DNA of 32,380 bases. It comes from Candidatus Omnitrophota bacterium. Lineage in GTDB: Bacteria > Omnitrophota > Gorgyraeia > Gygaellales > Profunditerraquicolaceae. Positions 4,459-30,238 of the stretch are shown here, in pieces. The notes under the pieces were generated by a model that was given only the letters and a program-made list of their open reading frames with translations, was not told the origin of the DNA and did not search any database. Numbering within the stretch: the stretch's first letter is position 1; the number at the start of each line of letters is the position of its first letter. A program made the translations under genes and the position numbers. Location of the stretch: positions 1-32,380 of the forward strand of contig JAUYEC010000160.1 in the NCBI GenBank assembly GCA_030691585.1. The letters run 5' to 3'.

Positions 4459-4532
4459 TGGGCGCAATAGGACTTGAACCTATGACCTCTACAATGTGAA
4501 TGTAGCGCTCTAACCAGCTGAGCTATGCGCCC
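4459..4532 (-). tRNA. tRNA-Val (anticodon CAC)
   Basis: GGGCGCATAGCTCAGCTGGTTAGAGCGCTACATTCACATTGTAGAGGTCATAGGTTCAAGTCCTATTGCGCCCA folds as a cloverleaf; CCA not encoded. Confidence 0.95.
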
Positions 4533-4538
4533 GACACC

Positions 4539-4568
4539 TGGGCCCACAGGGACTCGAACCCCCGACCA
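4539..4568 (-). repeat. Duplicate of the 3' 30 nt of tRNA-Ile2 (att-like)
   Basis: TGGGCCCACAGGGACTCGAACCCCCGACCA matches 4707-4736 with one mismatch. Confidence 0.85.
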
Positions 4569-4706
4569 GTCGCTCCTGCGTCGCTTGCCAAAGGGGCTCT
4601 GCCCCTATGGCGCTCGGCCGAAACTTCGGCCTCGCTGTTACCCCGAACCCGCGGGGAAAGTTTTTCCCCGCACCCCTTTTTGGTCCGGGCGACGCGTTAT
4701 TTTATT

Positions 4707-4780
4707 TGGGCCCACAGGGACTCGAACCCCGGACCAAGTGATTATGAGTCACCTGCTCTGACCGACTGAGCTATGGGCCC
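4707..4780 (-). tRNA. tRNA-Ile2 (anticodon CAT, lysidine type)
   Basis: GGGCCCATAGCTCAGTCGGTCAGAGCAGGTGACTCATAATCACTTGGTCCGGGGTTCGAGTCCCTGTGGGCCCA. The body (AGAGCAG..GACTCATAAT..TTGGTC) resembles ileX-type tRNAs and lacks initiator features. Confidence 0.88.
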
Positions 4781-5914
4781 CGAATATCCAACCTCTCTAC
4801 TTTCAATAACTTCTGATAAACTCAAATTTAAGTTATTTTCAGGATTTACCATTTCCTGCATATTTCCTGCATATTTAGGCGTAGATTTTTGTAAGTTTTG
4901 CCCTAAAATATCAACTGCGCGCTTCTTATGATCCGGAGATAAGTGACTATATCTTAGCGTCATCTGTATTGATTTATGCCCAAGTAATTCCCGCACCGTA
5001 TTTAGATCAACTCCGCACATTACCAATTGCGATGCAAAGGTATGCCGCAAGTCGTGAAAATGAAAATTTATAATACCAGAATTTGTCAAGGCGGTCAAGA
5101 AGCTTTTCTTGATATCTCCGAACGGCTCACCAGTTGTATTGCAAAAAATATAAGGACTTTGAGGGTGCTTTCTCACCTTAATTAAGGTAGTCCTGACTTC
5201 CGAATTCATGGGTACTTCTCTTTTTTCGCCATTCTTTGTATCATGAAGATAAATTATATCCCGCCTAAAATCAAAATCATGCCATTTTAGTTTTAGTATT
5301 TCGCTTTTGCGCATACCTGTGTTGAGAGCGACTATTACGATCGGCTTCAGGTAATTATGACAATTGGCTAATAACGTCTCGATTTCTTCTTTTTCAAGAT
5401 AACGTAGACGTTGATTATTTTCCCTGAATAATTTTACCTGTTTGACAGGATTATCTTGCGCCATTTTCCATTCAATCGCACGGTTAAATAGAGATTTCAA
5501 ACAAGCCAAATCCCTATTTATCGTTGCAGGAGCTATGCTTTTATTTTTTTGAACCCTTTTGATTCTTTCCGATTTATACTTCTCGATATCTAAAGGGGTT
5601 ATTTCGTGCAAATGTTTCCCAGAAAAATATTTTTTCAAGTTATTTATCTTCTTCTCATCAGATGTTTTCCAAGTTTTATTATTCGGTTTACAATGAAACT
5701 CCAAATACTGATCAGCGAAATCTTCGAACTTTATCTTTTCTTCTTTTTTAACATCAAGATATCTATTCTCGGCAATTTCGGTTAATCTTTTGTGCAAAAC
5801 CTTCTCGGCCAATTTCTTATCTTTGCCGATAGTTTCGGTCTTCCTTCTGCCATTAACAGAATAAACAATATAATAGGTTGTTCCTTTTTTACCTTTATAT
5901 TCGTATACCGGCAT
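4742..5914 (-). CDS. Phage-type tyrosine recombinase/integrase
   Basis: Catalytic R (TGMRKSEI), HxxR (HDLRHTFAS), H (LLGH) and Y (RYSH) are all intact; N-terminal arm-binding-like and SAM-like segments. The last 12 sense codons and the stop lie in the tRNA. Confidence 0.95.
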   Translation of the reverse strand: MPVYEYKGKKGTTYYIVYSVNGRRKTETIGKDKKLAEKVLHKRLTEIAENRYLDVKKEEKIKFEDFADQYLEFHCKPNNKTWKTSDEKKINNLKKYFSGKHLHEITPLDIEKYKSERIKRVQKNKSIAPATINRDLACLKSLFNRAIEWKMAQDNPVKQVKLFRENNQRLRYLEKEEIETLLANCHNYLKPIVIVALNTGMRKSEILKLKWHDFDFRRDIIYLHDTKNGEKREVPMNSEVRTTLIKVRKHPQSPYIFCNTTGEPFGDIKKSFLTALTNSGIINFHFHDLRHTFASQLVMCGVDLNTVRELLGHKSIQMTLRYSHLSPDHKKRAVDILGQNLQKSTPKYAGNMQEMVNPENNLNLSLSEVIESREVGYSGPIAQSVRAGDS

Positions 5915-5916
5915 AG

Positions 5917-6108
5917 CTATTTTCCATTTTTATTTTTATTATAAATTTCAAGCAATTTAGTTATTTCTTTTAAGGCTAATTTGGAGGGCCTAGAATGCCC
6001 TCTTTCCCATCTATTAACCGTACAGAAAGCAACTCCTATTTTTTCGGCAAATTCTTCTTGGGTTAATTTTAGTTTTTCGCGGATAACTCTTGTATCAATT
6101 TTTTCCAT
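5917..6108 (-). CDS. XRE-family HTH transcriptional regulator (63 aa)
   Basis: IREKLKLTQEEFAEKIGVAFCTVNRWERG is an HTH_3 pattern. The track's TTG start at 6144 is the -35 box, so the ATG at 6108 is preferred. Confidence 0.9.
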   Translation of the reverse strand: MEKIDTRVIREKLKLTQEEFAEKIGVAFCTVNRWERGHSRPSKLALKEITKLLEIYNKNKNGK

Positions 6109-6115
6109 GGTTATG

Positions 6116-6144
6116 AATATAGCATACGCTATATTATATGTCAA
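6116..6144 (-). promoter_or_regulatory. Sigma70 promoter with overlapping palindromic operator
   Basis: TTGACA-17 bp-TATATT with extended -10 TG; palindrome AATATAGC-N4-GCTATATT at 6116-6135. Confidence 0.8.
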
Positions 6145-6163
6145 GGCTTTTAATTCTTAATTA

Positions 6164-6352
6164 TTAATAACTGTCAATGCTTTTAATTTCATCCTCTCTA
6201 AACCAAGCATCTATTTTTTCTTTGTCGAACCTAACTAGCCTGCTTTTTTTAATAAAAGGGACCTTTCTCTGACGGATCCATAAATAAATTGTAAAAACAC
6301 TTAGACCAGTGTAAGCTGATAATTCTTTTGGCGATAAATATCTTTTTTCCAT
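6164..6352 (-). CDS. Excisionase-like HTH_17 DNA-binding protein
   Basis: YLSPKELSAYTGLSVFTIYLWIRQRKVPFIK..RLVRFDKEKIDAW pattern; located near the integrase. Confidence 0.85.
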   Translation of the reverse strand: MEKRYLSPKELSAYTGLSVFTIYLWIRQRKVPFIKKSRLVRFDKEKIDAWFREDEIKSIDSY

Positions 6353-6460
6353 AGGGTATTTATTTTTTTATTAATTTCTTAATTAACATCAAGTAATCTT
6401 TTAGCGTTAAAATTACAAATCATTCTTTTCCTGACTCTTCGCCGAAAAGAATTAAATGAC

Positions 6461-6593
6461 TTATCCACAGTATCCACAGCCTTTATTTACTACTACTGTT
6501 TCTTTATAATGTTTCTTTGTATTATGGCAGGTGGTCTACAGGCCACTATTTTCCGGTGGTCTGCTGACCACTACCCAGTGGTCTGGAGTCTCT
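6461..6593. promoter_or_regulatory. Putative replication origin: DnaA boxes, AT-rich tract, palindromic iterons
   Basis: TTATCCACA (6461-6469) and GTATCCACA (6470-6478); AT-rich 6481-6525; three GTGGTC-N4-GACCAC-like repeats starting at 6531, 6556 and 6578. Confidence 0.65.
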
Positions 6594-6929
6594 TACATGT
6601 GAAGTTTTCCACAACTGCCATGACGTGTATTCTTTGTTTAAACCGATCCTATTTTCCCATCCTGTCTTGTCTTTAAACAACACATTATCTAAAATCAGCT
6701 TATTAATCCTTCTTTTAATGTAACGAATATCTATTCTTAATTTTCTAGCTACTGAACCATAGCTTATAAAAGATTTGCTTGTTTTCCAGCCGTAAGTCCT
6801 CCTGATGACTAACAGAATGATTCTTAATTCCGCGCAGGTAAAGGGATATTCGATTATGGCCTCAAATAGCTCGTTAGCTATTCTGGTATATCCGTTTTCT
6901 AATTGAGGATTCGACTTGAGGTCATTCAT
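6546..6929 (-). CDS. Phage replication initiator, lambda O-like N-terminal domain (short, possibly truncated)
   Basis: PQLENGYTRIANELFEA...ELRIILLVIRRTYGW...IGLNKEYTSW is characteristic of the Phage_rep_O N-terminus. ATG at 6929 is preferred over TTG at 6938. Confidence 0.82.
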   Translation of the reverse strand: MNDLKSNPQLENGYTRIANELFEAIIEYPFTCAELRIILLVIRRTYGWKTSKSFISYGSVARKLRIDIRYIKRRINKLILDNVLFKDKTGWENRIGLNKEYTSWQLWKTSHVRDSRPLGSGQQTTGK

Positions 6930-6936
6930 GGCAAAC

Positions 6937-6978
6937 AAAAAAGGCTGGCCTTCCGAAAGTTGATTCGGAAAACCAGCC
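6937..6978 (-). terminator. Intrinsic terminator-like hairpin directly upstream of the rep start codon
   Basis: Minus strand GGCTGGTTTTCCGAA-tcaact-TTCGGAAGGCCAGCC followed by TTTTTT. Confidence 0.75.
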
Positions 6979-7137: not shown

Positions 7138-10100
7138 TTAATTATTAGTTTCTTTTTCGTACAAGTCTTCAATATAGACCGTAGAGGTAACCAGCGAGCT
7201 GTTGGTAACGGTTTTTTTCACTCTTTTACCATCACCATCATAGATGAACTCAGTTTTGCTGCCATCTTTGGTGATACTGACCGGCCTGTTTTCAGGGTCA
7301 TATGCAATTGACCTGCCGGCGCCGGACGTCATATTGCCGCAAGTATCATAGGCGTAGCTGTTTTTACCGTCATTAGTTAGAGCGTGGATTTTTGAAGCGT
7401 GATAACTCTGCCCCGCGCCGTTTGCCTTCATAATATTTCCGATGGCGTTATATTCATAAGTATTCCCATCCCCCGAGACCAACCTGTCCAGGCCGTCATA
7501 AGCATAATCCTTGGTATAAGAATGCGCCGCATCCGTAATCTTAACTATATTGCCAACCTTATCGTAGGCGTAAGTTAAATCCTGCAGAGATCCGGTTAAA
7601 ATCGATTTTAGCCTTTGATTTTCAGGGTAATAGCCATACCTGGTAACAAAATTGTTTGAAAAAGTAACCGCGGCCGGCTGCGTTGAAGCATTATAATCCG
7701 CGCTTAGCACAAAGTTATCGATAGATTCAGGCAATCCGGCATTGTTATAAGTAAATTTTACTTCTTTTAAGTTGGGAAAAATAATGGACTTGATCCTGTT
7801 CATCGCATCGTAACTCCACTGCACGACGTAAGGATTATCGGCCCCGACAGTCTTGTCTAATTCCGTAACCCTACCCTCTAAATCATATTGCCACTGGCTG
7901 CTGCCTGAAAGGTCTTTCATACCGGTGCGCCTGCCTATGCCGTTTGTAGAAGAGGCTTCGTCATAACTATACGTAACTTCTATTCCCGGCTGACCGGAAT
8001 AATCCTTGGTTATCATCCGGTTAAGCGCGTCATAAGTAAAATTAACGACCTGTCCGGAGCCATCGACAAATTTCACGAGATTACCGTTATTATCATAATC
8101 ATAATTCCACGTACCCAAATCGGGGTCAACCATCTTTGTCCTGCGCCTTAAGGTATCATATGAAAATTCAAATTTATTTCCAGGATGGTCGGTGATCTGA
8201 ACAAGGTCATCAAGGCAATCATATTTATATGTGGTAGAATATTCTTCTGAACCGTTTTTTTCCTTCACTTGCGACAATAAACCGTAAGCGTCCTTTATGA
8301 AGGTTTTTTGATGACCGTTTTCATCGGTTATGGCCGTGTTCCAGCCGTCATAGGAATTATTGATCGTGCCTGAATCGGGCTTAATAATTGAAGTTATCCT
8401 GCCGATCGCGTCATAGGAGTATTGAGTCCATCCAGGCGCCCCATCGGCTAAGTGATAAGTTTTCCTTAAGCCGCCGTCTTTAAAATAAGGCAGGGAAGCT
8501 TTGTCTATCTCTCCCCTTGGATTATAAACGGTAGTAATGTAACTATAAATATTGGCGTCTTTACCTTCCCTGCCGGTCTGAATCACCCTTTCGAAACCGT
8601 CCAGAATATCAATTTTTATAAGGTGGTTGGCAGTGCCGCTAACTTCTGTGGTGCGGGTCAAAATATAATTCGACCCCGCTCCGTTGATCCCGTATTCATA
8701 AGATTCCGAGCCATACGTTGAATACAAATCATATGGCCCGGAGATTTTTGTTTTCCTGCCGAAACCGTCATATTCAAAACCGGTTTCATTTCCATTAGGA
8801 TCAATTTTGGATTTTATCTGCCCGAAAAGGCCTTTTGGATCGGAAGACATATAATAGGAAGTTTTTTCAGGCTGGCCTTTGGCGTTGGTCAATAAAACAG
8901 GAAAAGCATGATACGTTGAATCATAATCCACCTTCGTAACATTTCCGTTGGCGTCGGTTTTAGTAATTTCGTTGCCGTATGCGTCATAGGCCGACGTAGC
9001 CTGGATATAATTATTCATTGTATTAAGATATCTTTTTATCGCGGTTAAGTCTCCTTTTACGGGCGCATTGGAATAGCTGGAATTATTATCGTAAAAATAT
9101 TGCGTCTCGGACGCGGGCGTGCCTGTCCCGGTTAAACCGGAAAACACGCGTTCACGGGAAGGCAAATTTAGCAACCACGAGGATGTATTTAAGCTATAGT
9201 CGGTGAAAATGACCCTTTCATCCCCGGGAACATCACTATCTCCGTAAAATAATGTTTTTATCACATTGCCGTAATCATCATATTCATATGCGGTCCTGCG
9301 ACATTTAGAATCCGTATATTGATCGGACTGAATAAGCGGAGTAAAATATGGGGCAGAACTATCTTCTTTATAGGTATTCAAGATTCTGGTAATTGCATTT
9401 TCCTGCCGCTCAATCTTGCCCAACCTGGAATCATCCTGGTGATAATAGAGATGTGTAATGTTGTTTAGAGGATCAGTTACCTGCACATGACGGAAGCCCC
9501 TAAAGATCTTATTCTGCGTATCATATGAGCCGCCGTCATAAGCATAAGTAGTTATGCCTGCGATAGAGACGCCTATCCCAGGATCAGAAACAGAAGAATA
9601 CAACACCGGCAGGGAAAAAGGAAAGGTTGAGCCGCCGCAGTCTCTAGGATTCTTGTAATAAAAACTGGTTTTCCCGCCATAGCGGTTAATTACCTCTTTT
9701 AAAAGGTCGTCCTGGGCGGCTTCTAATCTGCAAGGAGTAAAGCTGTTTTCTTTTACCTTAAGACAGTCAACGACCCCATCCTTATCGCAATCAAAAAATA
9801 ACACATCTCTATCCTCGCTTTTCCAGGGGGGTTGGCTATTGAGCTGAAGCATCGGCCCAAAACCCTGACCATTACCCAAATGGCATTTATAGACCAACCC
9901 TCCTCCCCATTGATCATATTTACCGCAGACAAGGTCGGCAAAACCGTCTTTATTAATGTCAAAAACCTTTGTCGAAAGCCAAAACAAATTAAAACCGGCA
10001 TCAGAAGAGATATCTCTAATCTGGCCGTCCCATCCTGAACCATCGGCCAGCATATAATGCAGCTCAAAACCGGTATTTTGCGTAGCGCCGGCTTTACTAC

Positions 10101-11634
10101 AGAGAAAATCCGCCAGGCCGTCTCCGTTAAGGTCTGCAAGGCAACCCACATGGTTATAACACTGACCGTTATAACAGTGCCCGTTTTTGCCGAGTTGAAA
10201 ATAAAAAGGCAGGTTAGTAAAAAGCCGCACCGGATCATTCCAACCGCTGCCGTTGCCATAACAGACAGAGACATTTACCGAACTCATCGTAGCTCCCACA
10301 ATCTTTGCCTGGACAATATCTATGTATTTATCATTATTAACAAAGGCCAGCTGATTATGGGCATAGATCAAACTTAAATCATTGTTCCAGGCCTGGGTGT
10401 TCTCAATAACTACAGGCCCATTCCATCCGTCTCCGGTATTAAACCATACCTGATAATGCGCTGAGCCGGGCCCGATAGTAGGATTACTCCTGATAATGTC
10501 ATCCCGGCCGTCTCCGTTAACGTCTCCCAACTGAATATTGGCGGTGCCGGAATTGCTATATGGGAACCCGTAAGTCTTCACCGGGCCCCAGCCTCCATCT
10601 TGCCACAAGGCCACCTGGATTGTGGAATTAGAGATTTTGAATAAGTCGGGAAAACCGTCGCCGTTGATATCGCCCACGCGCGTATATGCGTCGCTGATAT
10701 CCCAGGGAGCGGGAGAGGCGAGGCGGCGCGCGGAATCAAAATTAATCGTGTTGGCGGCATAATTAAATTCCGCTATTTTAAGGCGGCTGTTTGCGTCCTT
10801 TGCGATCTCATCAACTTGCTTGAGCAGGCTTTTTGAGCTATTTGGGCTGTAAGTATAGGTAAAATCATACCTCTTATATAAAGAGCCTTCTACCAAGACA
10901 TCAATATAATCCACCCTGTAATTATATCTTACCGTCCTGCCGGAAGCGTTATCCGGATAAGTATCACTTCGGCCCTCATAATGGAATTCGACCGTCCTAT
11001 ATTTATTTAAATCGTTTCCTTTTGTGTATGTGATTGTTTCTATATAGCCGGTATAATCGCTTGAGATATAAGATATTTCCATAAAATTCCCATGCGTATC
11101 GGTTACCTTAGTAAGATAATAATTAAGCTCTCCGGCATTATAGTTATATTCGTATTTTGTGCCGTCTCTGTCTATTATCGCCCATTTACTGCCGGATTTA
11201 GTTATCTTTAAGTAAGACTCAAGCTTAGTGCGGAATTCTCCGTTACCGATGCCAACCAATTCAGATACAGTGTCATTCAACTGCAGGATAAATATATCGC
11301 TGTCGTTAAAATCCGGACGCTTAAGCCTAAGGCTGCGGGTAATCCTGCCTAAATCGATATTCCAGCCGACTCCTGCGCTGCTATTACCGTTGCCGGAAAA
11401 ATAACGCAAGACCAGCTGCGGCTGTATTCCGCTCGTGCCCGGGGCAACCTCCAAAGGAATAGAATAAGTTACTGCGCCGCTAAACTTATTATGCTGGAAA
11501 TTCTCTATTCCCACTGAACCCATTAACGAACCCAGGGCGGGAAAGGTATCGGTAGTGACGTCGGCGCGGGAGGAAAACGCCACAGTCAAGATTGAAAAAA
11601 TCAGAATAAAAATAATTCGCATCATTTTCGCCAT
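7138..11634 (-). CDS. Secreted SpvB / FG-GAP(VCBS) / TcdB-mid / YD-repeat protein lacking the RHS core ('shell')
   Basis: Signal peptide (MMRIIFILIFSILTVAFSSRA); SpvB-like SGAVTYSIPLEVAPG...GVGWNI; DxNGDGxxD repeats; FRGFRHV; many YD repeats; ends at YIEDLYEKETNN with no DPxG core. Confidence 0.9.
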   Translation of the reverse strand: MAKMMRIIFILIFSILTVAFSSRADVTTDTFPALGSLMGSVGIENFQHNKFSGAVTYSIPLEVAPGTSGIQPQLVLRYFSGNGNSSAGVGWNIDLGRITRSLRLKRPDFNDSDIFILQLNDTVSELVGIGNGEFRTKLESYLKITKSGSKWAIIDRDGTKYEYNYNAGELNYYLTKVTDTHGNFMEISYISSDYTGYIETITYTKGNDLNKYRTVEFHYEGRSDTYPDNASGRTVRYNYRVDYIDVLVEGSLYKRYDFTYTYSPNSSKSLLKQVDEIAKDANSRLKIAEFNYAANTINFDSARRLASPAPWDISDAYTRVGDINGDGFPDLFKISNSTIQVALWQDGGWGPVKTYGFPYSNSGTANIQLGDVNGDGRDDIIRSNPTIGPGSAHYQVWFNTGDGWNGPVVIENTQAWNNDLSLIYAHNQLAFVNNDKYIDIVQAKIVGATMSSVNVSVCYGNGSGWNDPVRLFTNLPFYFQLGKNGHCYNGQCYNHVGCLADLNGDGLADFLCSKAGATQNTGFELHYMLADGSGWDGQIRDISSDAGFNLFWLSTKVFDINKDGFADLVCGKYDQWGGGLVYKCHLGNGQGFGPMLQLNSQPPWKSEDRDVLFFDCDKDGVVDCLKVKENSFTPCRLEAAQDDLLKEVINRYGGKTSFYYKNPRDCGGSTFPFSLPVLYSSVSDPGIGVSIAGITTYAYDGGSYDTQNKIFRGFRHVQVTDPLNNITHLYYHQDDSRLGKIERQENAITRILNTYKEDSSAPYFTPLIQSDQYTDSKCRRTAYEYDDYGNVIKTLFYGDSDVPGDERVIFTDYSLNTSSWLLNLPSRERVFSGLTGTGTPASETQYFYDNNSSYSNAPVKGDLTAIKRYLNTMNNYIQATSAYDAYGNEITKTDANGNVTKVDYDSTYHAFPVLLTNAKGQPEKTSYYMSSDPKGLFGQIKSKIDPNGNETGFEYDGFGRKTKISGPYDLYSTYGSESYEYGINGAGSNYILTRTTEVSGTANHLIKIDILDGFERVIQTGREGKDANIYSYITTVYNPRGEIDKASLPYFKDGGLRKTYHLADGAPGWTQYSYDAIGRITSIIKPDSGTINNSYDGWNTAITDENGHQKTFIKDAYGLLSQVKEKNGSEEYSTTYKYDCLDDLVQITDHPGNKFEFSYDTLRRRTKMVDPDLGTWNYDYDNNGNLVKFVDGSGQVVNFTYDALNRMITKDYSGQPGIEVTYSYDEASSTNGIGRRTGMKDLSGSSQWQYDLEGRVTELDKTVGADNPYVVQWSYDAMNRIKSIIFPNLKEVKFTYNNAGLPESIDNFVLSADYNASTQPAAVTFSNNFVTRYGYYPENQRLKSILTGSLQDLTYAYDKVGNIVKITDAAHSYTKDYAYDGLDRLVSGDGNTYEYNAIGNIMKANGAGQSYHASKIHALTNDGKNSYAYDTCGNMTSGAGRSIAYDPENRPVSITKDGSKTEFIYDGDGKRVKKTVTNSSLVTSTVYIEDLYEKETNN

Positions 11635-11692
11635 CCTTTTAGCCTTTTCATTACATACTCATCCATATTGTAGGATTCTGGCATTCTCCAAA

Positions 11693-11983
11693 TTACATAA
11701 AGCGTGCGCCGTAGTCATACAGGCCGGTGGAATCACCAAGTTCTTTACCGGTGAATTTGCGCTTGATGGTTTTAGGGCCTTCTTCTACCTTGGTTTCGCC
11801 ATATGGCTTATATTCAAGATATTTGACAAGCTGGGCGGTTGCATCGGTGACTACGGAAGTTGAGCCGAGGTGGTCGAGGGCCGTCGCTACCGAAGAACCT
11901 GGGGACTTATTCAAAGGAAGGTACCCCTGAAGGCTACCGAAGATAAGAGTTGTAGATAATAGTAAGTTAATAATGTTAGTCAT
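11693..11983 (-). CDS. Truncated RHS-core cassette (leader + partial core, no toxin); possible pseudogene
   Basis: Near-identical to the N-terminus of 12414-13409; stops after YDYGARFM. Confidence 0.75.
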   Translation of the reverse strand: MTNIINLLLSTTLIFGSLQGYLPLNKSPGSSVATALDHLGSTSVVTDATAQLVKYLEYKPYGETKVEEGPKTIKRKFTGKELGDSTGLYDYGARFM

Positions 11984-12019
11984 AGCCTATTCTGGAATTA
12001 AGTAGCATGCCCGGAATTC
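11712..12019. repeat. 308-bp direct repeat, copy A (upstream motif + leader + RHS core start)
   Basis: Aligns without gaps to 13138-13445; the core portion also aligns to 14664-14834. Confidence 0.92.
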
Positions 12020-12067
12020 CAAACCATAATTTAGGGGTCATGTAGACTATCATTCTAATTGTTTTTA

Positions 12068-12409
12068 TCATGGCATAGTGATATAAAAACCTAACCGCCC
12101 TAAGATCGGTGCCAAAATATACATGTTAAAGAAAAAAGATATACCAATTAATATAATTATTTGTAGAAAGCTAGCTAAAATACTTAATACAACCAACACG
12201 ATTCTATTTATTTTTGGTATAATTCTGAATAAATAACCAGTTGTCCCAACAAAAACCAATGTACTTATTAAGATAATAACCCCTAACCCAAACTTCTCAG
12301 ATATTCTACCGCTACCCCCTTGGCCTAATAGTACATCTGCGACAAAAACAATGGAATCAAGACTTATACAAATTAAATAACCGACGAGATTTACTTTAAA
12401 CCATTGCAT
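12068..12409 (-). CDS. Putative membrane immunity protein (about 3 TM helices)
   Basis: Hydrophobic 113-aa, AT-rich ORF starting 4 bp after the toxin stop. Confidence 0.7.
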   Translation of the reverse strand: MQWFKVNLVGYLICISLDSIVFVADVLLGQGGSGRISEKFGLGVIILISTLVFVGTTGYLFRIIPKINRIVLVVLSILASFLQIIILIGISFFFNMYILAPILGRLGFYITMP

Positions 12410-12413
12410 AAGT

Positions 12414-13409
12414 TTACTCCTTTAACGGAATGGGTTTATCAGCCCCGGGTTGCCACCCGGACAGATTAGGGATATTAGATATTTTAGCATCTTTTAGTAC
12501 TCCATAAGTATACGCATTACTATTGTAAAATGGGTCGAATCGCCAAGGAGTCGGATCGTATGGTAAATTATCTTTATATTTATTAGCCGAAGTAATAATA
12601 TCTTTTATTAACTGTGTATCAGAACGTTTCTCAGGATCTAAAATTCGCTGACTATTCTTTAAATTGGAAGGGCTATCCCCGGCTATGCTGGGATAGGATT
12701 TTAAGTTACCGAAAAGAGGGCTTTTAAAAGTTGATTTCCAATTTGGGTTTGCACTTAAAGTAGCTTCCAGTCCGCCTTTAGAATTCGTATACCATTTAGT
12801 GCTTGCATCATTTTTGAAATCATTGGGATTATCAGGATGAAGAACAACTACGGTATGACTACCAACGCTTATACCAAATACCTTTACTGGCTTTTCTTCC
12901 AAAGCTACCCACAGTCCCGTCGGATCAATGTAACTGATAGGATTATTTAAACAATAACTATATCTGTTTAAATTCTGCGGATTATATAAAAGAGCGATGA
13001 GAAGATTTTGTTCTTGAATGTTTCTAATACGAAAACTTATGGAATCTCTAAGTATATTTTGTTTTTGAAGCAGAAATATATCTATTGGGTCGGGAGTAAT
13101 GAATCTTCCAATCGTGGGGTCATACAACCTAGCTGAATAGTCATACAAGCCGGTGGAATCATCCAGCTCCTTGCCGGTGAATTTGCGCTTGATGGTTTTA
13201 GGGCCTTCTTCTACCTTGGTTTCGCCATATGGCTTATATTCAAGATATTTGACAAGCTGGGCGGTTTCATCGGTGACTACGGAAGTTGAACCGAGGTGGT
13301 CGAGGGCCGTCGCTACCGAAGAACCTGGGGACTTATTCAAAGGAAGGTACCCCTGGAGACTGCCAAAGATAAGGGTTGTAGATAATAGTAAGTTAATAAT
13401 GTTAGTCAT
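12414..13409 (-). CDS. Leader peptide + RHS repeat-associated core + C-terminal toxin domain
   Basis: DHLGS...YKPYGE...FTGKELD...ARLYDPTIGRFITPDP...NRYSYCLNNPISYIDPTG, then a ~165-aa variable tip with H...YNSN. Confidence 0.88.
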   Translation of the reverse strand: MTNIINLLLSTTLIFGSLQGYLPLNKSPGSSVATALDHLGSTSVVTDETAQLVKYLEYKPYGETKVEEGPKTIKRKFTGKELDDSTGLYDYSARLYDPTIGRFITPDPIDIFLLQKQNILRDSISFRIRNIQEQNLLIALLYNPQNLNRYSYCLNNPISYIDPTGLWVALEEKPVKVFGISVGSHTVVVLHPDNPNDFKNDASTKWYTNSKGGLEATLSANPNWKSTFKSPLFGNLKSYPSIAGDSPSNLKNSQRILDPEKRSDTQLIKDIITSANKYKDNLPYDPTPWRFDPFYNSNAYTYGVLKDAKISNIPNLSGWQPGADKPIPLKE

Positions 13410-13445
13410 AGTCTATTTTCGAATTAAGTAGCATGCCCGGAATTC
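13138..13445. repeat. 308-bp direct repeat, copy B
   Basis: See 11712-12019. Confidence 0.92.
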
Positions 13446-13463
13446 GCGCTATTTCAGTGTTCA

Positions 13464-13904
13464 TTACTTTTCTACCCAAATTTCTAGCATGCACTCGCTT
13501 TCTTTGCCAAGTCCAGGTATAGTCTCTCTAAATTTCTGCTTAACATAAGTTATATATATAAACTTACCTTCTTTATATAAATCCGCCATTTGAGAACGAG
13601 TTAATGAACTGCCTGGAATTTCTGATGTCTGTCTAGCCCATGATGACTTCTCTAAACCAGTTTCAATTTCAAACTCTTCATAATCGTTGTGTCCTGATTT
13701 AAAAACACGAGAAATTGTTCCTTCGATAGCGTGGGTTTTAATTACACCGCCATTCACTGCCTGCCACCATTCCTTAGAGCCAAATAAGCCATATTCTGGA
13801 ACCAAACCAAACTTTTTAGTGTTTAAAGTTGCTTTTTGTATATCTGAAATGTAGTCTTGGTCATATCTTAAATCGTAAATTTGTATTAAGTTGTTTTTTT
13901 CCAT
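13464..13904 (-). CDS. Putative soluble immunity protein
   Basis: 146-aa AT-rich ORF directly downstream of the 840-aa toxin, with a GGAGAAGG RBS; family not recognised. Confidence 0.65.
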   Translation of the reverse strand: MEKNNLIQIYDLRYDQDYISDIQKATLNTKKFGLVPEYGLFGSKEWWQAVNGGVIKTHAIEGTISRVFKSGHNDYEEFEIETGLEKSSWARQTSEIPGSSLTRSQMADLYKEGKFIYITYVKQKFRETIPGLGKESECMLEIWVEK

Positions 13905-13960
13905 ATAGCCTTCTCCACAATTTTTTTCAATTTATTATTATTTGATTTAATTCCTCCGTA

Positions 13961-22582: not shown

Positions 22583-24277
22583 TTATTGGACTACCCGTAA
22601 AACTTCTTCGGGCGTAGTAAGGCCGGCTAAAACTTTTTCCCAGCCGTCCTGCTTCAATGTCCTCATACCCAACGCGACCGCCTTGTGTTTCATCGCGTCG
22701 GAAGACGTTTTTTGTAAAATCATTTTTTTTATCTCCTCATCGACCTGCAGGATTTCATAAATGCCCGTTCTATTCATATACCCCGTATTATTACACACTT
22801 TACAGCCTTTGCCGCGATAGCCTGTCTGTGCCGCCCCGCCGTCTTTGCCCTCCGGCATACCGAACTTTTGGCATATTTCTTCAGGCAGGCGGTATTCTTC
22901 CTTGCAGTTATTGCATATCAACCTCACCAGCCTCTGGGCAATAAATGCCTCTACCGAAGAGGCAATCAAATACGGTTCGATGCCGATGTCAACCAAACGG
23001 GTGACGCCGCTTACGGCGTCGTTGGTATGAAGCGTGGAAAAAACCAGGTGGCCGGTAAGCGCGGTCTGGATGGTAATATCGGCAGTCTCATAATCCCTGA
23101 CCTCTCCCACCATCATTATATCCGGGTCGTGCCGAAGCATGCTTCTAAGCACTACGGAAAAAGTAAGGTTTATGTTCGGGTTAACCTGCGTCTGTGTAAC
23201 TCCCTTGAGTTCATACTCAACGGGGTCTTCGATGGTAACTATTTTCCTCTGCCGCGTATTAAGACGGCTTAAAAAACTGTATAAAGTCGTAGTTTTACCG
23301 CTTCCGGTGGGCCCGGTTACAAAAATTATCCCGTGAGGCCTTTCCAGCAATTGCTCCAAAACCGCCAGCTCTTTTTGCGACATACCCAAATTAGCTATAT
23401 CGAAAAGCATGGTCGTCGGCAGGATCCTGATCACGATATTTTCACCATAAAGCGCCGGCATTACCGATACCCGCAATTCATATTCTTTATCTCCTATCCC
23501 GACCTTTGCCCTTCCATCCTGCGGGATCCTTCTTTCCACGATATCCAATGAGGACATAATTTTGATCCTTGAGACAATTGGAAGATATAAGTGCTTTATG
23601 GCGTCGGGGACGGAAGTATCATAAAGGATGCCGTCGATTCTGTAACGCAAGCTCAATTCTTTGCGGAAAATTTCTATGTGTATATCCGTCGCCCGGTCAT
23701 TGATTGCCTGCTGGAGGATCTGGTTAACCAGCCTTATTACCGAGACGTCCGCGGACATCTTTTCCAAATCTTCAACCTTGTCATTTTTTTCTTCCGGCTT
23801 TTCTATGCCATATTCCGCCTGATTGGACAACAGCCTCTCAATCGTGTCGGCGCCTACGCCGTAATATTTTCGCGCGGCCTCCATTATGTCCGCGGACACC
23901 GCCAATACTTTTTCCACCCTCAATCCCGAATGCGCCTCAAGGTCATCAACCGGCCAGGCGTCAAGGGGATTAGATACCGCGATGGTAAGCACATTGTCCG
24001 TTATATTTACCGGCATAATCTTATAGTGCCAGATAAATTTAGCGGGCACGGCCTGGACGGCCTTATCGTCGATACTTACGTTCTTTAATTCCAGGAAAGG
24101 GATACCCTGCTGCTCGGCAAGGATCTGCAGCATCCTTCTTTCGGTAACAAACCCCATGCCTATCAAAACTTCGCCGAGCAGTTTTTTCGTCTTCTGCTGC
24201 TCCTTAAGCGCCAGTTCCAATTCCCGCGGAGTTATTATTCTTTTTTCTATAAGTAATTCACCCAACCGCAACGTCAT
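22583..24277 (-). CDS. gspE: T2SS/T4P assembly ATPase GspE/PilB
   Basis: Walker A GPTGSGKTTT, TIEDPVEY, RHDPDIMMVGEVRD, TGHLVFSTLH, tetracysteine motif; MshEN-like RLGELL N-terminus. Confidence 0.95.
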   Translation of the reverse strand: MTLRLGELLIEKRIITPRELELALKEQQKTKKLLGEVLIGMGFVTERRMLQILAEQQGIPFLELKNVSIDDKAVQAVPAKFIWHYKIMPVNITDNVLTIAVSNPLDAWPVDDLEAHSGLRVEKVLAVSADIMEAARKYYGVGADTIERLLSNQAEYGIEKPEEKNDKVEDLEKMSADVSVIRLVNQILQQAINDRATDIHIEIFRKELSLRYRIDGILYDTSVPDAIKHLYLPIVSRIKIMSSLDIVERRIPQDGRAKVGIGDKEYELRVSVMPALYGENIVIRILPTTMLFDIANLGMSQKELAVLEQLLERPHGIIFVTGPTGSGKTTTLYSFLSRLNTRQRKIVTIEDPVEYELKGVTQTQVNPNINLTFSVVLRSMLRHDPDIMMVGEVRDYETADITIQTALTGHLVFSTLHTNDAVSGVTRLVDIGIEPYLIASSVEAFIAQRLVRLICNNCKEEYRLPEEICQKFGMPEGKDGGAAQTGYRGKGCKVCNNTGYMNRTGIYEILQVDEEIKKMILQKTSSDAMKHKAVALGMRTLKQDGWEKVLAGLTTPEEVLRVVQ

Positions 24278-24284
24278 CGCTTCC

Positions 24285-25715
<1,431 letters not shown>

Positions 25716-26558
25716 CTAACTTCTCTTTCTCAATAACTGCGACGAAAATGTTTCACGCATACCCCTATCTATCAACTCATGCCGGCTGCGGAAATATTGA
25801 AACCTTATCAGTCTCTCCCTTTGCAGCAAAACCTGGTGGCTTTCTTCCAAATGCACCGTCCGGGCGGAAAATTCCGATAGTTTACTGTCCTCAAACACCT
25901 CAAATAATTTCTCCACAACCCAGGTGCCGACCAAATACTCGATTATCGCGCTTAAAGATGATTCTATTATAATGTTTTCTTCCGCGATATTTTCTCTTTT
26001 TTTAAACAGTTCACTGCAAGGAAGGATGCTTAGCGCTTCTATCTTATGGACGGTAAAAGAAACCGGCTTGGGATAAAAAAGCATCAACCTGGAAAACTTT
26101 CCGGCCAGCCCCTCTTTCATGATAAAACTTTTCAGGTTCAAAGCGGCCTCATAGCCCCCGTCGCTTGTGATTCCCGGAAATCCGGTGAAACTGCGGCCCA
26201 TGCCCTTAAGGTAGGCGGCCCCGCGATCGCCTATTATGATAAGTTCGGCATTTTCCGCGCCGGAATATTCTAAAGCGGTATTTATCACTTTTGTATTCAA
26301 CCCTCCCATAAACCCTTCATCAGAAGTGATCATAATAATACCGAGATTGCCGCCGCCTCCGGCAAAGGGATGCTGGACGGAGCTGAAATCTATCAACTGG
26401 AAAAATCCCTCAAAGGCATCCATAAATTTGGCGAAACGCTCTCTCCTCTTTTCAAGCTGCCTGAATTGCGCAGAGGCTATGCCTTTTAATACCTCCAATA
26501 ACTGCGTCAATTCCGTATTCAACTCCAGTTCATTTTTTAACCTTTGCGCGGATTGCAT
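25716..26558 (-). CDS. atpG: F1 ATPase gamma subunit (divergent)
   Basis: ITSDEGFMGGLN, IIGDRG and SEFSAR motifs; located between alpha and beta. Confidence 0.85.
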   Translation of the reverse strand: MQSAQRLKNELELNTELTQLLEVLKGIASAQFRQLEKRRERFAKFMDAFEGFFQLIDFSSVQHPFAGGGGNLGIIMITSDEGFMGGLNTKVINTALEYSGAENAELIIIGDRGAAYLKGMGRSFTGFPGITSDGGYEAALNLKSFIMKEGLAGKFSRLMLFYPKPVSFTVHKIEALSILPCSELFKKRENIAEENIIIESSLSAIIEYLVGTWVVEKLFEVFEDSKLSEFSARTVHLEESHQVLLQRERLIRFQYFRSRHELIDRGMRETFSSQLLRKRS

Positions 26559-26564
26559 ATTTCT

Positions 26565-28034
26565 TTATTCCATCCCCTTTAGATAACCGACAAACAAGCT
26601 GTTCAATACCTGTTCTATCTCAAGCGTGAGTTCTTTGGCCGATTCCAATTTTTTTGCCAATTCCGGCTCACGCGCGAGGATATATTGCCAGATTTCATTT
26701 TTAAACCTGTTGATCTTTGGCGGTTCCAATTGATCCAATATTTTTCTGTCCAAGGCATAAAGCAAAACAATTAATTCCGCGATGGCGGCCGGTTTGTTTT
26801 TATCCTGATTAAATATAGCGGTAATTACCTCTCCCCGGCGGATTTTGAACGCCACGTCCTGGCTTAAACTCGATTTTAGTTTAGTCAGGCGTAAAAGTTC
26901 TTTAAATTGCGTATATTCCAGGCGGATTCCGCCGCTTAACCTCTTTAAAACAGGATTTTGCGTCTTGCTTCCGATAATCGATACCGACATTGAAAAATCC
27001 ACTGCCGGTTTAAAGCCCTCGGCAAACATAGATGAATTCAAATAGATTTGCCCATCTGTCATTGAGATAAGATTAGACGGAATAAACCCCGTTACATCCT
27101 GCTGTAAGGTATCCGCGATAGGGAAGAAACTCATTGAGCCTGAACCCAGCTCCCGGCTAAGCCTGCCGGCGCGCTCCATAAGCTGGGAATGAATATAATA
27201 AATATCTCCGGGGTAAGCTTCTCTTCCCGGCGGCCTTTCCAGCAATAAGGAAATCTGGCGGTATGCCCAGGCATGCTTGGTCATATCATCGAACACCACT
27301 AAAACATCCCTGCCGTTATAAAAAAAATATTCCCCTAAGGCGGCCGCGGCATAAGGAGCCAGATACTGTTCTGCCGTCGTTGCCGAAGCGGGGGCGGCGA
27401 CAACCAGCGTGTAATCCAGCGCGCCCCCGAATTTAAGAAGCTGTGTTACTTTTAACAGCGAAGAAAAACTCTTGCCGATACAGCAATAAATACAAACAAC
27501 CCCCTTGTCTCTTTGGTTGAGTATGGCGTCTACCGCTATCGTTGTTTTACCTGTCATCCTGTCCCCAATAATCAGCTGGCGCTGCCCCTTGGAAAGCGGG
27601 ACAATAGCGTCTATGATCCTGGTGCCTGTTTCTAAACACGATAGGGCGCCGGAGCGCTCCATAGTGCCGGGCGCTTCTCTAAAAACAGGATAGTATTCAA
27701 CTGGGGGATTAACGGGGCCTTTGCCGTCTACAGGCTCGGCCAGGGCATTGACAATCCTGCCTAAAAAACCTTCGCCAACGGGTATCCTGAATTCTTCCGG
27801 CAAGCTATAGACTTCCTGGCCAAGCCTCACGCCGGCCTCATCGCCCAGGATCAAAACCGAGACTTCGTCTTCCCAAAAACCCACAATCATGCCTTTCGGG
27901 CCGCCGGAAAAAGTTACCAACTGGCCGTTCATAAAACCGCTAAGCCCGGATACGGCGGCAATGATTTTTTTAACCGACTTGACCCTGCCGGCCTCTTTTA
28001 TCCTGATTGCCGGTGAGTTTAATGTGTCCTGCAT
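26565..28034 (-). CDS. atpA: F1 ATPase alpha subunit paralog 2 (arginine finger lost)
   Basis: GQRQLIIGDRMTGKT, PPGREAYPGD, ISMTDGQIYL; SVSIIG in place of SVSRxG. Confidence 0.9.
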   Translation of the reverse strand: MQDTLNSPAIRIKEAGRVKSVKKIIAAVSGLSGFMNGQLVTFSGGPKGMIVGFWEDEVSVLILGDEAGVRLGQEVYSLPEEFRIPVGEGFLGRIVNALAEPVDGKGPVNPPVEYYPVFREAPGTMERSGALSCLETGTRIIDAIVPLSKGQRQLIIGDRMTGKTTIAVDAILNQRDKGVVCIYCCIGKSFSSLLKVTQLLKFGGALDYTLVVAAPASATTAEQYLAPYAAAALGEYFFYNGRDVLVVFDDMTKHAWAYRQISLLLERPPGREAYPGDIYYIHSQLMERAGRLSRELGSGSMSFFPIADTLQQDVTGFIPSNLISMTDGQIYLNSSMFAEGFKPAVDFSMSVSIIGSKTQNPVLKRLSGGIRLEYTQFKELLRLTKLKSSLSQDVAFKIRRGEVITAIFNQDKNKPAAIAELIVLLYALDRKILDQLEPPKINRFKNEIWQYILAREPELAKKLESAKELTLEIEQVLNSLFVGYLKGME

Positions 28035-28052
28035 ATGGGAATTTCCGGTATG

Positions 28053-29522
28053 TCAAGAGGCTGGAGAATATACTTCTTCGTTTTTAAAGAAAGCAATCAA
28101 GCACCCATCCAATTCTTTTGTGATTCCAGGGGTTAATTTCTTTTCATTAAACAAATCATCCATCATTGCCGGATAGTTATCTTCGGCAAATTGCAGGATA
28201 TTCTTTTTGAAATATTCTATTTGCGGTTTTGAAAAAACTTCAAGGACGTCCCGCCTTAAAGCATAAAGCAAAATCAGTTCTTCCTCCAAAGAGCAAGGTT
28301 TGGTCTTCTCTTGAATAAAGAGGTGCGTTATTACCTCACCATGCTTTAAGCGCTGGCCCACTTCTTCCGATACGCCTGTTTTAAACCTGGTAACATTCAA
28401 CAGATCAAGGTATTGTATGTATTCCTGGCGCAGCATCGAACTTAATTCCTTCATTGCCGCACACTGCACCTTGTTGCCTATCCTTGAAACGGAAAGCCCC
28501 AGGTCTATTGCCGGCTTGAACCCTGAATTGAATAAGCCCGTGTTTAAATAAATCTGGCCGTCCGTCATCGAAACAAGATTCGATGGGATATAACCGGTTA
28601 TATCGCCCTGAAGAGTATCAACTATGGGGAAAAAAGTCATTGAGCCGTTTTTTAATTCAGGATTAAGCTTTCCCGCCCTTTCCATAAGTTGCGAGTGTAA
28701 ATAGAAAATATCCCCGGGATAGGCGTCCCTTCCCGGAGAACGCTCTAAGAGCAATGAAATCTGGCGGTATGCCCAGGCATGCTTGGTCAGGTCGTCAAAA
28801 ACCACAAATACGTCTTTGCCGTTATGCATAAAATATTCGCCGAGCGTGCAGGCGGTATAGGGCGCCAGGTACTGCTCGCCTACCGGGCAGGAGGACGCCG
28901 CGGAAACCACTATTGTATACTTCATAGCATCGTTATCTTTTAATGTTTCAATGATTTTCTCAAGAGAAGCCTGGAATCGGCCTATGCAGCAATATATACA
29001 AATGACGTCCTTGCTTTTCTGATTAATTATGGCGTCTACGCATATGCTTGATTTTCCAATCATCCTGTCGCCGATGATTAATTCACGCTGGCCGCGGCCA
29101 ATAGGGATGGTTGCGTCAATAATCAAAATCCCCGTCTCAAAGGCTTCGGCCAAAGGGGCGCGCTCAAGCACACCCGGGGCATCCCGGAAAAGAGGATAGT
29201 ATTCGCCGCCCGACAAGATAATGCCCTTTCCATCCGACGGCTCGGCCAGGGCATTGACAACCCTGCCTAAAAAACCCTCACCCACCGGAACCCTGAACTC
29301 CTCCATCCTGCTATAAACGGTGTTGCCGACCTTTACATCATCTACTTTACCCAAGAGAAGAACCAACGCCTCCTCTTGCGCGAAGCCCATTACTATTGCC
29401 CTGGTATTGACGGTTATATCCAGCAACTGGCCGTTCATACAGCTTGAGAGTCCCGCGACCTTAGCAACGCTTTTTTTAATCTCTTTTATCCGGCCGGTTT
29501 CCCGGACCAACACCATGCTCAT
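28053..29522 (-). CDS. atpA: F1 ATPase alpha subunit paralog 1
   Basis: GRGQRELIIGDRMIGKS, PGRDAYPGDIFYLHS, SMTDGQIYL, LSVSRIG. Confidence 0.92.
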   Translation of the reverse strand: MSMVLVRETGRIKEIKKSVAKVAGLSSCMNGQLLDITVNTRAIVMGFAQEEALVLLLGKVDDVKVGNTVYSRMEEFRVPVGEGFLGRVVNALAEPSDGKGIILSGGEYYPLFRDAPGVLERAPLAEAFETGILIIDATIPIGRGQRELIIGDRMIGKSSICVDAIINQKSKDVICIYCCIGRFQASLEKIIETLKDNDAMKYTIVVSAASSCPVGEQYLAPYTACTLGEYFMHNGKDVFVVFDDLTKHAWAYRQISLLLERSPGRDAYPGDIFYLHSQLMERAGKLNPELKNGSMTFFPIVDTLQGDITGYIPSNLVSMTDGQIYLNTGLFNSGFKPAIDLGLSVSRIGNKVQCAAMKELSSMLRQEYIQYLDLLNVTRFKTGVSEEVGQRLKHGEVITHLFIQEKTKPCSLEEELILLYALRRDVLEVFSKPQIEYFKKNILQFAEDNYPAMMDDLFNEKKLTPGITKELDGCLIAFFKNEEVYSPAS

Positions 29523-30238
29523 TTCCTAAGCGCCTCGCAGGCTTCATTAAGTTTTCCGCGCAAGCTGCCGTCAATAATAAGACCTCCTAATTTTATTATG
29601 ACGCCCGCGATAATACTTGCATCCGCCGTCTCCTCCAACGTTATATTCCTTCCGGTTTTGGCGGAAAGCGTGGATGCTATTTGCTCTTTTTCGGCTTTAG
29701 TAATCTCTACGGCTATAATCAATTCACCTTTATCGGTATTCACATTTAACTTTGACGCCTCGATCATGCCTATTTCGTCCAGGGCGTCTTGCAGGACCGC
29801 GGTGCGCAGTATCAACATATTCTTAGAGGTAAGTATTTTCTGGATCAACGCCAGAGATTGCTCCACGCACTTTTCCTGCAGCCCGGCTTCGATCTCCTCC
29901 CTGATTTTTTCCTTTGTATTCAGGGCCTGTTTAATCATCCGGTCGGCTTCCTGTTTTGCCTTGTTCAAAGCTTCTTCTTTTATCTTATCCGATTGTTCTT
30001 TTGCTTCGGCCCTTAGTCTATTCGCCTCTTTTTCCGCGGCTTCAACTTTATCCCGGTATTTTTTCTCCGCCTCCTCCATCTTTGCCGCCAGTTCCCGCGC
30101 TTTTTCGGCATTTTCCCGGCTAAGCTGTTGTAACCTCTTAGTCTCCACAAAAGAGGCGGAATACATAATTTTATACAGGACAAAAACCAGCGCCGCAAAA
30201 GTCAGCACCTGAATTATGATAAGTTGAATTATCAGCAT
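29519..30238 (-). CDS. atpF: Peripheral stalk b-delta fusion subunit
   Basis: Q..TFAALVFVLYK TM helix, Ala/Glu/Lys coiled coil, C-terminal delta-like DASIIAGVIIKLGGLIIDGSLRGKL. Confidence 0.85.
   Translation of the reverse strand: MLIIQLIIIQVLTFAALVFVLYKIMYSASFVETKRLQQLSRENAEKARELAAKMEEAEKKYRDKVEAAEKEANRLRAEAKEQSDKIKEEALNKAKQEADRMIKQALNTKEKIREEIEAGLQEKCVEQSLALIQKILTSKNMLILRTAVLQDALDEIGMIEASKLNVNTDKGELIIAVEITKAEKEQIASTLSAKTGRNITLEETADASIIAGVIIKLGGLIIDGSLRGKLNEACEALRK

Follow-up and report, generated by a model that had tools for sequence, protein, structure and literature searches.

The 32,380-nt stretch of DNA analysed here (the window) comes from a Candidatus Omnitrophota bacterium (assembly GCA_030691585.1, contig JAUYEC010000160.1, positions 1 to 32,380), and our subject is a rearrangement hotspot (RHS) toxin locus on its minus strand, in particular two short 'orphan' cassettes that each begin with an ATG and a leader of their own. 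Read along that strand, the order is an 840-aa gene, a 146-aa open reading frame (ORF), cassette 1, a 113-aa ORF, cassette 2 and an RHS shell gene. The main core-toxin gene (13961..16483, 840 aa) encodes a signal peptide, an F5/8 type C domain, immunoglobulin (Ig)-like repeats, the final RHS strand (ERIYIYLNGKRVA), an RHS-associated core and a toxin; the 146-aa ORF on its 3' side (13464..13904) is, from its position, likely to be the immunity gene. Cassette 1 (12414..13409, 331 aa) consists of the ATG and a leader of 35 codons (13305..13409), an RHS-associated core running from DHLGS to DPTGL (12912..13301) and a 165-aa toxin domain of no known family (12417..12911, with the stop codon at 12414-12416). 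The hydrophobic 113-aa protein encoded next (12068..12409) is likely, again from its position, to be the corresponding immunity protein. Cassette 2 (11693..11983, 96 aa) has a leader (11879-11983) and half a core. The shell gene that follows (7138..11634, 1498 aa) encodes a signal peptide, SpvB, FG-GAP and TcdB mid/N domains and RHS repeats, and ends without a tail at ...TVYIEDLYEKETNN. Beyond the shell come RepO-like, excisionase-like and helix-turn-helix (HTH) genes, an integrase and a tRNA-Met. A scan for promoters and terminators gave nothing usable.

The core of cassette 1 scores 82.3 bits against TIGR03696 (cut-off 32.5), with DPTGL at residues 162-166, and that of the 840-aa protein scores 78.2 bits. 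Neither the cassettes nor the 840-aa protein match RHS_repeat or YD, the repeats being confined to the separate 1498-aa protein. The toxin of cassette 1 has no sequence match in Pfam or the PDB, and the 146-aa and 113-aa immunity candidates match no known family; the arrangement of toxin followed by immunity gene nevertheless fits, and the toxins differ between the cassettes and their relatives. The ATG of the 113-aa immunity candidate lies only 4 nt after the stop of cassette 1, with an AAGGAG inside the last codons of the cassette. Cassette 2 stops at YDYGARFM, 58 nt before the shell gene, and its core covers only model positions 1-37 of TIGR03696 (25 bits, below the cut-off). The preliminary description of this DNA had counted both cassettes as subunits, which fails for cassette 2: it is a truncated 96-aa remnant with neither toxin nor immunity gene. 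Unitigs from a lake-water run (X2) cover the cassette 2/shell junction (window 11588-11887) at 89-94% identity, so that the truncated remnant is common to a diverged strain. Upstream of codon 33, at a depth of only 2, these unitigs read SLGPLA in frame, where the window reads SPGSSV. As a further observation, the cassette 1 core carries an insertion of about 30 aa (window 12990-13110, residues ~101-140) between GRFITPDP and NPQNLNRYSY; a shorter form of it is found in the proteins P0010, P0015 and P0018, and the canonical RHS cores of the order lack it.

Both cassettes open with the same leader, MTNIINLLLSTTLIFGSLQGYLPLNKSPGSSVATA, followed by LDHLGS, and as had been described the five nucleotide differences between the two copies are all synonymous (ACC/ACT, TTT/TTC, GGC/GGT, AGT/AGC and CTC/CTT). 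All five are third-position C/T changes, confined within the 105 nt to codons 12-18; the probability that five random sites among 105 would all be third positions is 0.0034. The leader is part of a longer repeat of 300 nt at 95% identity (11712-12011 against 13138-13437), which extends from the 36 nt 5' of the ATG (13410..13445, with the second copy at 11984-12019 and three differences between them) through the 35-codon leader and into the core. A third copy of the repeat, at 63% identity, lies in the 840-aa gene (14670-14969), where homology to the cassettes begins only at the (L/S)DHLGS codons; the main gene and the cassettes share about 165 nt of core at high identity. These are the only two copies of the leader in the window's genome. 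In unitigs of run X1, which may be the source sample, the first 28 nt of each leader are linked to their own distinct 5' flank (spans 11956-13178 and 13382-14710), and both leader copies are therefore real in the X1 data. The contigs of two DNA runs break at the repeats, and no alternative junction was seen in them. The antisense frame has the same third positions; as the selected frame it was rejected, being closed by a TGA in copy 2 and having no antisense ORF over the leader in either of the two related contigs described below. A role for the leader as a recombination site was likewise set aside, as the 36-nt upstream sequence is present only in the window's two copies.

We searched for the leader against 5.8 billion protein clusters (182-580 aa, with residues 1-40 as the query), against 1.84 billion representatives, in 60 relatives and in a collection of species genomes. 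No relative of the leader appeared in the 5.8 billion clusters or the 60 relatives. The best foreign match among the 60 relatives (E 0.043) was a hydrophobic stretch inside a 472-aa membrane protein, which we regard as chance, and the idea that the leader is a fragment of an unrelated gene was dropped. In the species-genome collection, two candidate stretches out of 330 held up on confirmation; each is the end of an ordinary RHS and matches residues 27-60 only. An exhaustive profile search returned 2596 proteins at E <= 0.001; among the 150 best, of which we inspected 16 individually, the whole leader was covered only by P0003, a complete cassette of 332 aa. At least two metagenome contigs do carry this type of leader with the ATG as its boundary, so that the leader is conserved elsewhere, one of the points on which the preliminary description could have failed. 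The cassette of the first (L020, of which P0003 is the complete type) begins MTIINLFLTTTLIFGNLSLNSQPSFVQLNGKRIAMEENGKKYFFHSDHLGS and that of the second (L021) begins MTLINLFLTTTLIFGNLGLNS..., and the gene order there matches that of the window, with an 840-like main gene (L022), an immunity gene, the cassette, a further immunity gene and an RHS shell.

Comparison of the four copies points to selection on the encoded peptide. The sequences 5' of the ATG in the window and in L020/L021 are unrelated, and the conserved unit therefore starts at the ATG, which is the homology boundary in all four copies and is preceded in each by an in-frame stop 2-5 codons upstream. Over 16 aligned leader codons (S=12, N=36), and with the two pairs treated as independent, the window pair differs by 5 synonymous and 0 non-synonymous changes (proportions of differing sites pS 0.42 and pN 0) and the L020/L021 pair by 5 and 1 (pS 0.41, pN 0.03). 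Given that about a quarter of sites are synonymous, the chance of 5/0 is ~0.001 and that of 5/1 is ~0.005. Between the window and the L020/L021 arrays the leader gives pS 0.53-0.70 and pN 0.14-0.18, and across all four copies the variable sites number 4, 1 and 9 at the first, second and third codon positions. This dN/dS-type comparison agrees with the purifying selection that had been proposed for the leader. For the window pair, pS in the leader (0.42) is nine-fold that in the adjacent core (0.045). The leader therefore diverged long ago, though only at silent sites, and has kept that divergence, whereas gene conversion has probably made the core uniform. Since the leader recurs in a relative with its ATG boundary and has changed mostly at silent sites, the peptide is very probably translated, as the preliminary description had supposed, and for the conserved block itself (codons 1-18, 13356-13409) we consider translation likely from the codon changes of the two pairs and from the start of homology at the ATG.

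The shell gene next to the cassettes stops directly after YIEDLYEKE, one hairpin before the point where a core would begin, and encodes neither core nor toxin. Its front end matches PF03534, PF13517/PF01839 and PF12256 (SpvB, beta-propeller and TcdB mid/N), and its C-terminal repeats align to the portion of TcdB2-TccC3 fusion chains in the PDB that comes from TccC3, and to T6SS (type VI secretion system) Rhs cocoons. Matches to the last 250 residues of the shell were found in 29 of 234 genomes of the order. At 30 loci examined, four shells, those of the window and of the genomes G001, G185 and G012 (58-70% identity), stop 3 residues after ...YIEDLYEKE, 21 run in frame to DHLGS, and 5 are partial or of another kind; these relatives are counted from incomplete metagenome-assembled genomes, that of the window being 84% complete. 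The canonical full-length RHS proteins of the order read ...GRVKK(7-10 aa)STTYIGSLFEKDSSGK.TKHIFAGANRVA...YYHSDHLGS. In the window's own genome (G000), contig C106 carries such a canonical protein of >1846 aa, cut by the contig end at ...YYHSD, and C114 and C182 carry further core-bearing ORFs, one of them 159 aa long. The shell matches 43 database proteins at E <= 1e-20. The nearest 17 of them (1346-1649 aa in length, with 58-100% identity across residues 1330-1498) all end 1-9 residues after YE(K/E)(E/D) and none has DHLGS; P0154, the shell of the L021 contig, is among them and ends in the same way. The genome G292, from another family of the phylum, shows the same stop and the same upstream partner, G001, G185 and G012 being of the window's family. 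We considered whether the neighbouring integrase/RepO element had truncated the shell gene; the stop is conserved in genomes that lack the element, and the element therefore did not do so. The tail-less shell thus forms a conserved family that ends at this point by design, and judged from its sequence it is a whole cocoon minus the C-terminal plug.

What the shell lacks is found upstream. The split is complementary: the shell sequence finishes in the turn that follows ...LYEKE, and the strand that would come next, ERIYIYLNGKRVA, opens the RHS-like part of the 840-aa protein. At all five loci with visible context (the window, L021, G185, G012 and G292), a core-toxin gene with the orientation of the shell lies upstream of it. 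Four carrier proteins were scanned (window, G185, G012 and L022, the G292 and L021 genes being outside the scan); all four have Ig-like or fn3 modules and none has a Pfam match to RHS_repeat. The 840-aa core finds its nearest relatives in G012 (75% identity) and G185 (69%), no other genome offering a match above 59%. The partner toxins vary: G185 has a lipase-like domain, and in G012 a TNT fragment lies nearby. Proteins of the same kind also occur on their own. Both P0010 (363 aa) and P0020 (420 aa) are made up of a signal peptide and a short linker, followed by the last strand, core and toxin. P0010, whose genome is not among the 401 genomes of the phylum searched, is 55% identical to cassette 1 over core and toxin, from DHLGS to the last residues (E 2e-106). 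Mini core-toxin subunits, as previously proposed, therefore suit this context, in which the neighbouring shell is conserved without a core and P0010 stands alone with a normal signal peptide.

Two side observations concern these partner loci. In G012 a 151-aa ORF with a TNT (NAD-glycohydrolase type) domain and no RHS core, followed by a 135-aa ORF, sits between the immunity gene of the main gene and the shell (L056:9519-9971), and looks like a core-less orphan toxin fragment. In G185 and G012 the shell is flanked by coiled-coil ORFs of 75-88 aa that carry signal peptides and are absent from the window (L054:10058-10321, L056:10474-10722 and L027:2506-2733); they could be an accessory factor of a split system.

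Another way to view the leader is as the remains of an RHS strand. It had been called non-RHS, and this description is open to challenge, for both MAFFT and a hidden Markov model (HMM) built from 17 canonical sequences set STTLIFGSL under the canonical strand STTYIGSLFE, with weak statistics: among 1000 composition-preserving shuffles, 38 scored as well as the window leader, 294 as well as that of L020 and 206 as well as that of L021. The reading of the first half of the leader as a relic of the last-but-one RHS strand is therefore plausible yet unproven. By eye, the leader also resembles the start of the P0020 signal peptide; as a Sec signal it would be atypical. The motif TLIFG[SN]L is invariant across leader copies, and conservation of residues this strong, unusual for a signal peptide, would fit a structural strand better. 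The second half of the window leader (QGYLPLNKSPGSSVATA) consists of 17 unrelated residues in place of 29 kept by the relatives. Read in the +2 frame, this second half (13305-13355 and 11879-11929) gives ..GVPSFE*VPRFFGSDGP.., which recalls the PSFV...YFFHSD of the relatives and might hint at old indels. The cassettes had further been said to lack even the YIY...RVA strands; this holds for the window copies and is not general, as L020, L021 and P0003 keep them.

The reading that we favour, and to which we would give a probability of about 0.5, is that the locus encodes an Omnitrophota RHS toxin system that is naturally split, in which the cassettes are alternative plug-toxin subunits. In such a system the shell would be one secreted protein of 1498 aa, ending one beta-hairpin before the core that plugs the cocoon and releases the toxin. 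Plug and toxin would be encoded apart and upstream, either as the tail of the 840-aa Ig-repeat carrier or as short ATG-led cassettes, and shell and plug-toxin would be exported separately, the plug-toxin then closing the shell in trans. Cassette 1 would be translated from its own ATG, with its 18-residue hydrophobic N-terminus kept by selection, and this N-terminus, acting either as a strand for docking or as an export signal of an atypical kind, would bring the mini subunit to the shell. Alternative toxins could in this way be loaded into a single shell, just as several TcC proteins can be accepted by one TcB. Assembly of shell and cassette in trans we would put slightly short of an even chance, and export of the cassettes is more doubtful. 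More speculatively, the tail-less shell may accept interchangeable plug-toxin subunits, from Ig-repeat carriers down to proteins of ~330 aa, with the leader docking at the open edge and toxins being switched on the level of the protein without DNA rearrangement, a proposal that we advance only tentatively.

Several findings weigh against this reading. The export that had been thought probable finds little encouragement in the leader: by a crude count, none of the three leader types has a K or R before its hydrophobic stretch, as against 9 of 9 neighbouring or related secreted proteins, whose signal peptides carry 1-4 net positive charges, and the mean Kyte-Doolittle hydrophobicity over 11 residues is 1.95-2.09, below that of all nine comparators (2.47-3.26). 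The shell has a Sec-type signal, and a partner that was not exported could therefore not meet it. The window cassettes are also without the strand FVQLNGKRIA... that their relatives keep, and may be degraded versions; export and the loss of this one strand are together the weak point for the window cassettes. Cassette 2 is certainly broken and cannot be functional. The leader family is tiny, comprising among the matches listed the two window copies, L020 (=P0003) and L021, with no further member in the 5.8 billion clusters, the 1.84 billion representatives, the 60 relatives or the species genomes. The four copies, drawn from two arrays, supply the selection test with 11 substitutions in all. 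No Shine-Dalgarno motif precedes the ATG in any of the four copies, although this counts only weakly because a crude survey finds one at no more than ~34% of 985 gene starts in this genome (11.5% at random sites). Finally, gene callers did not pick the ATG of the leader: they began cassette 2 at an internal TTG (P0005) and the cassette of L021 at an internal ATG (P0004).

The cassettes might instead be classical silent orphans, that is, untranslated stores of core, toxin and immunity sequences that are swapped into the 840-aa gene by homologous recombination, with open frame and ATG as mere leftovers. Their position downstream of the main gene is as expected for such stores, and the ~165 nt of highly similar core suggests gene conversion, as may the low core pS between the cassettes; the missing Shine-Dalgarno motif, the lack of a typical signal peptide and the remnant state of cassette 2 would also fit. 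Headless orphans do occur in the order, one in G074:C133 beginning ...SLFEKD without a start, and an orphan in G033 keeps 132 aa of RHS upstream of DHLGS. The difficulty lies in the leader: it is present in neither the main gene nor the shell, and recombination into the main gene therefore cannot explain why its changes (5/0 and 5/1) are silent; in every copy, moreover, the homology boundary falls on an ATG. We consider the silent-orphan explanation unlikely for these reasons, while noting that storage and expression roles could coexist. If the cassettes are translated, their products could still remain in the cytoplasm, either as a selfish pair of the toxin-antitoxin (TA) kind or with translation serving mainly to drive coupled translation of the immunity gene. 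Precedent for the former comes from Salmonella, where main and orphan Rhs-CTs, for which internal promoters and a CTG start provide expression, behave as TA modules of type II (PMC7043789), and a leader with no charged n-region would be in keeping with it; coupling is suggested by the 4-nt spacing of the immunity ATG and the placement of its Shine-Dalgarno motif inside the cassette. However, the 113-aa immunity candidate is largely hydrophobic, which suggests a cell-envelope target and not an antitoxin of the cytoplasm; the nearest relative of the cassette 1 toxin, P0010, has a standard signal peptide; and coupling alone would not conserve the amino acids of the leader, so that we hold a cytoplasmic role to be improbable.

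It could also be that the window cassettes are decaying pseudogenes, broken copies of the L020 type that have lost the FVQLNGKRIAMEENGKKYFF strands. The replaced second half of the leader, the resemblance of its +2 frame to the relatives, the truncation of cassette 2 and the SLGPLA of the lake-water relative could all be taken in this sense. Yet cassette 1 has an open frame of 331 codons, resembles P0010 right up to the final residues and keeps the core motifs and DPTGL, and the frame is preserved across the rearranged stretch. A frameshift origin of the second half finds no support in the DNA, the similarity being at chance (357 of 1000 shuffles as high), and we give the decay reading little credence. 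Least probable of all, in our judgement, is a start at the internal TTG (codon 24), which would make the first 23 codons untranslated 5' sequence. The public gene call for cassette 2 starts there (MNKSPGSS...), with an AGGGG 9 nt before the TTG, but all five silent differences lie upstream of it in codons 12-18, and the TTG is absent from the relatives, in which codons 1-18 are nevertheless kept.

In the usual view, the toxin inside an RHS or Tc cocoon belongs either to the same chain or to a large TcC half-shell, and orphan toxin cassettes act mainly by recombination. Both the expression of orphans and the splitting of a cocoon into B and C components have precedents. The Tc cocoon is described as two separately made chains, TcB and TcC, and YenB, a single shell protein of Yersinia entomophaga, serves to package three TcC proteins, including one encoded at an orphan locus (PMC11067744). 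The window shell resembles this system in its TcB-type front end (SpvB, FG-GAP propeller, TcdB mid/N) and in an RHS part that matches the TcdB2-TccC3 chains. It differs in that TcC, by the description in that source, supplies ~680 residues of RHS repeats (PMC11067744), whereas the window partners bring at most one or two strands and the core, the shell lacking only the plug, and have Ig-like carriers or a short leader. No TcA-like gene (PF18276, PF03538) was matched in the window's genome, which carries little weight as none was matched in the control genomes either.

Orphan rhs-CT/rhsI arrays are explained by a displacement model, as displaced C-terminal tips. The window cassettes resemble such arrays in lying in tandem after a main gene, in sharing a core but not a toxin and in having an immunity gene after the toxin. 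They differ in their conserved ATG and in a leader that is apparently under purifying selection; moreover, the main gene of the window does not encode an RHS shell protein and the array lies upstream of the shell gene. That orphans are normally headless, as the preliminary description had it, is in any case not a firm rule, since the Salmonella orphan Rhs-CTs are reported to be expressed from core-proximal starts, as are the main ones, and orphans therefore need not be silent. The Salmonella Typhimurium system is alike in that core-proximal starts yield short toxin proteins, and different in that its CTG start is embedded in an uninterrupted rhs frame and its products are active in the cytoplasm of the cell that makes them (PMC7043789). 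The window cassettes have instead an ATG at the cassette boundary, a conserved hydrophobic leader and a membrane-like immunity candidate. In T6SS Rhs proteins, a C-terminal aspartyl-protease core is described as sealing one end of the cocoon and releasing the toxin inside (PMC8765631). Such effectors (RhsA, Tse5 and Tse15) match the window in their RHS repeats and have the core domain of its cassettes (TIGR03696), but each is made as one chain, has PAAR or clade domains and is fired by the T6SS, whereas in the window shell and core are separate genes with Sec-type signals.

In open-access papers and preprints we found no description of a shell split from the plug alone, with repeat-less plug-toxin genes and ATG-led cassettes, and in a preprint on Omnitrophota RHS is mentioned only as a structural comparison (10.1101/2023.11.21.568195). 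If the split-system reading is correct, the locus would represent a third arrangement, in which the smallest unit, plug plus toxin, is exchangeable. It would offer a simple natural system for studying how a toxin enters an RHS cocoon, what the minimal signal for loading is and why orphans are retained, and short 'RHS core domain' proteins in metagenomes may then be functional subunits and not mere fragments of genes.

Immediately upstream of the toxin locus, and in its orientation, lies a gene set resembling a type II secretion system (T2SS; 16933-24277), with GspE, F, G and K, pseudopilins and PilM/N/O-like genes. No secretin was seen in the window, and in G185 the corresponding set is not beside the toxin locus. 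Such a set might export shell-toxin complexes delivered by Sec. The gap between the locus and this set is gene-poor (16537-16930) and contains a 39-nt inverted repeat (16756-16794 / 16866-16904). Short ORFs in the gap read much like ...PKATKQSQK..., and a similar peptide (1169-1260) ends the RuvC-like ORF elsewhere in the window; these stretches probably represent a dispersed repeat.

Beyond the shell (4459-5914), the integrase ORF ends within the tRNA-Met (4707-4780, minus strand), and 24 nt from the 3' end of this tRNA are repeated at 4539-4562, beside a tRNA-Val. This repeat looks like an att-type remnant of an integrated element comprising the integrase, HTH, excisionase-like and RepO-like genes (4742-6938). 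At the far end of the window, the ATP synthase operon (24285-30238) contains three consecutive genes of the alpha/beta family, two of which are of the alpha type (26565-28034 and 28053-29522).

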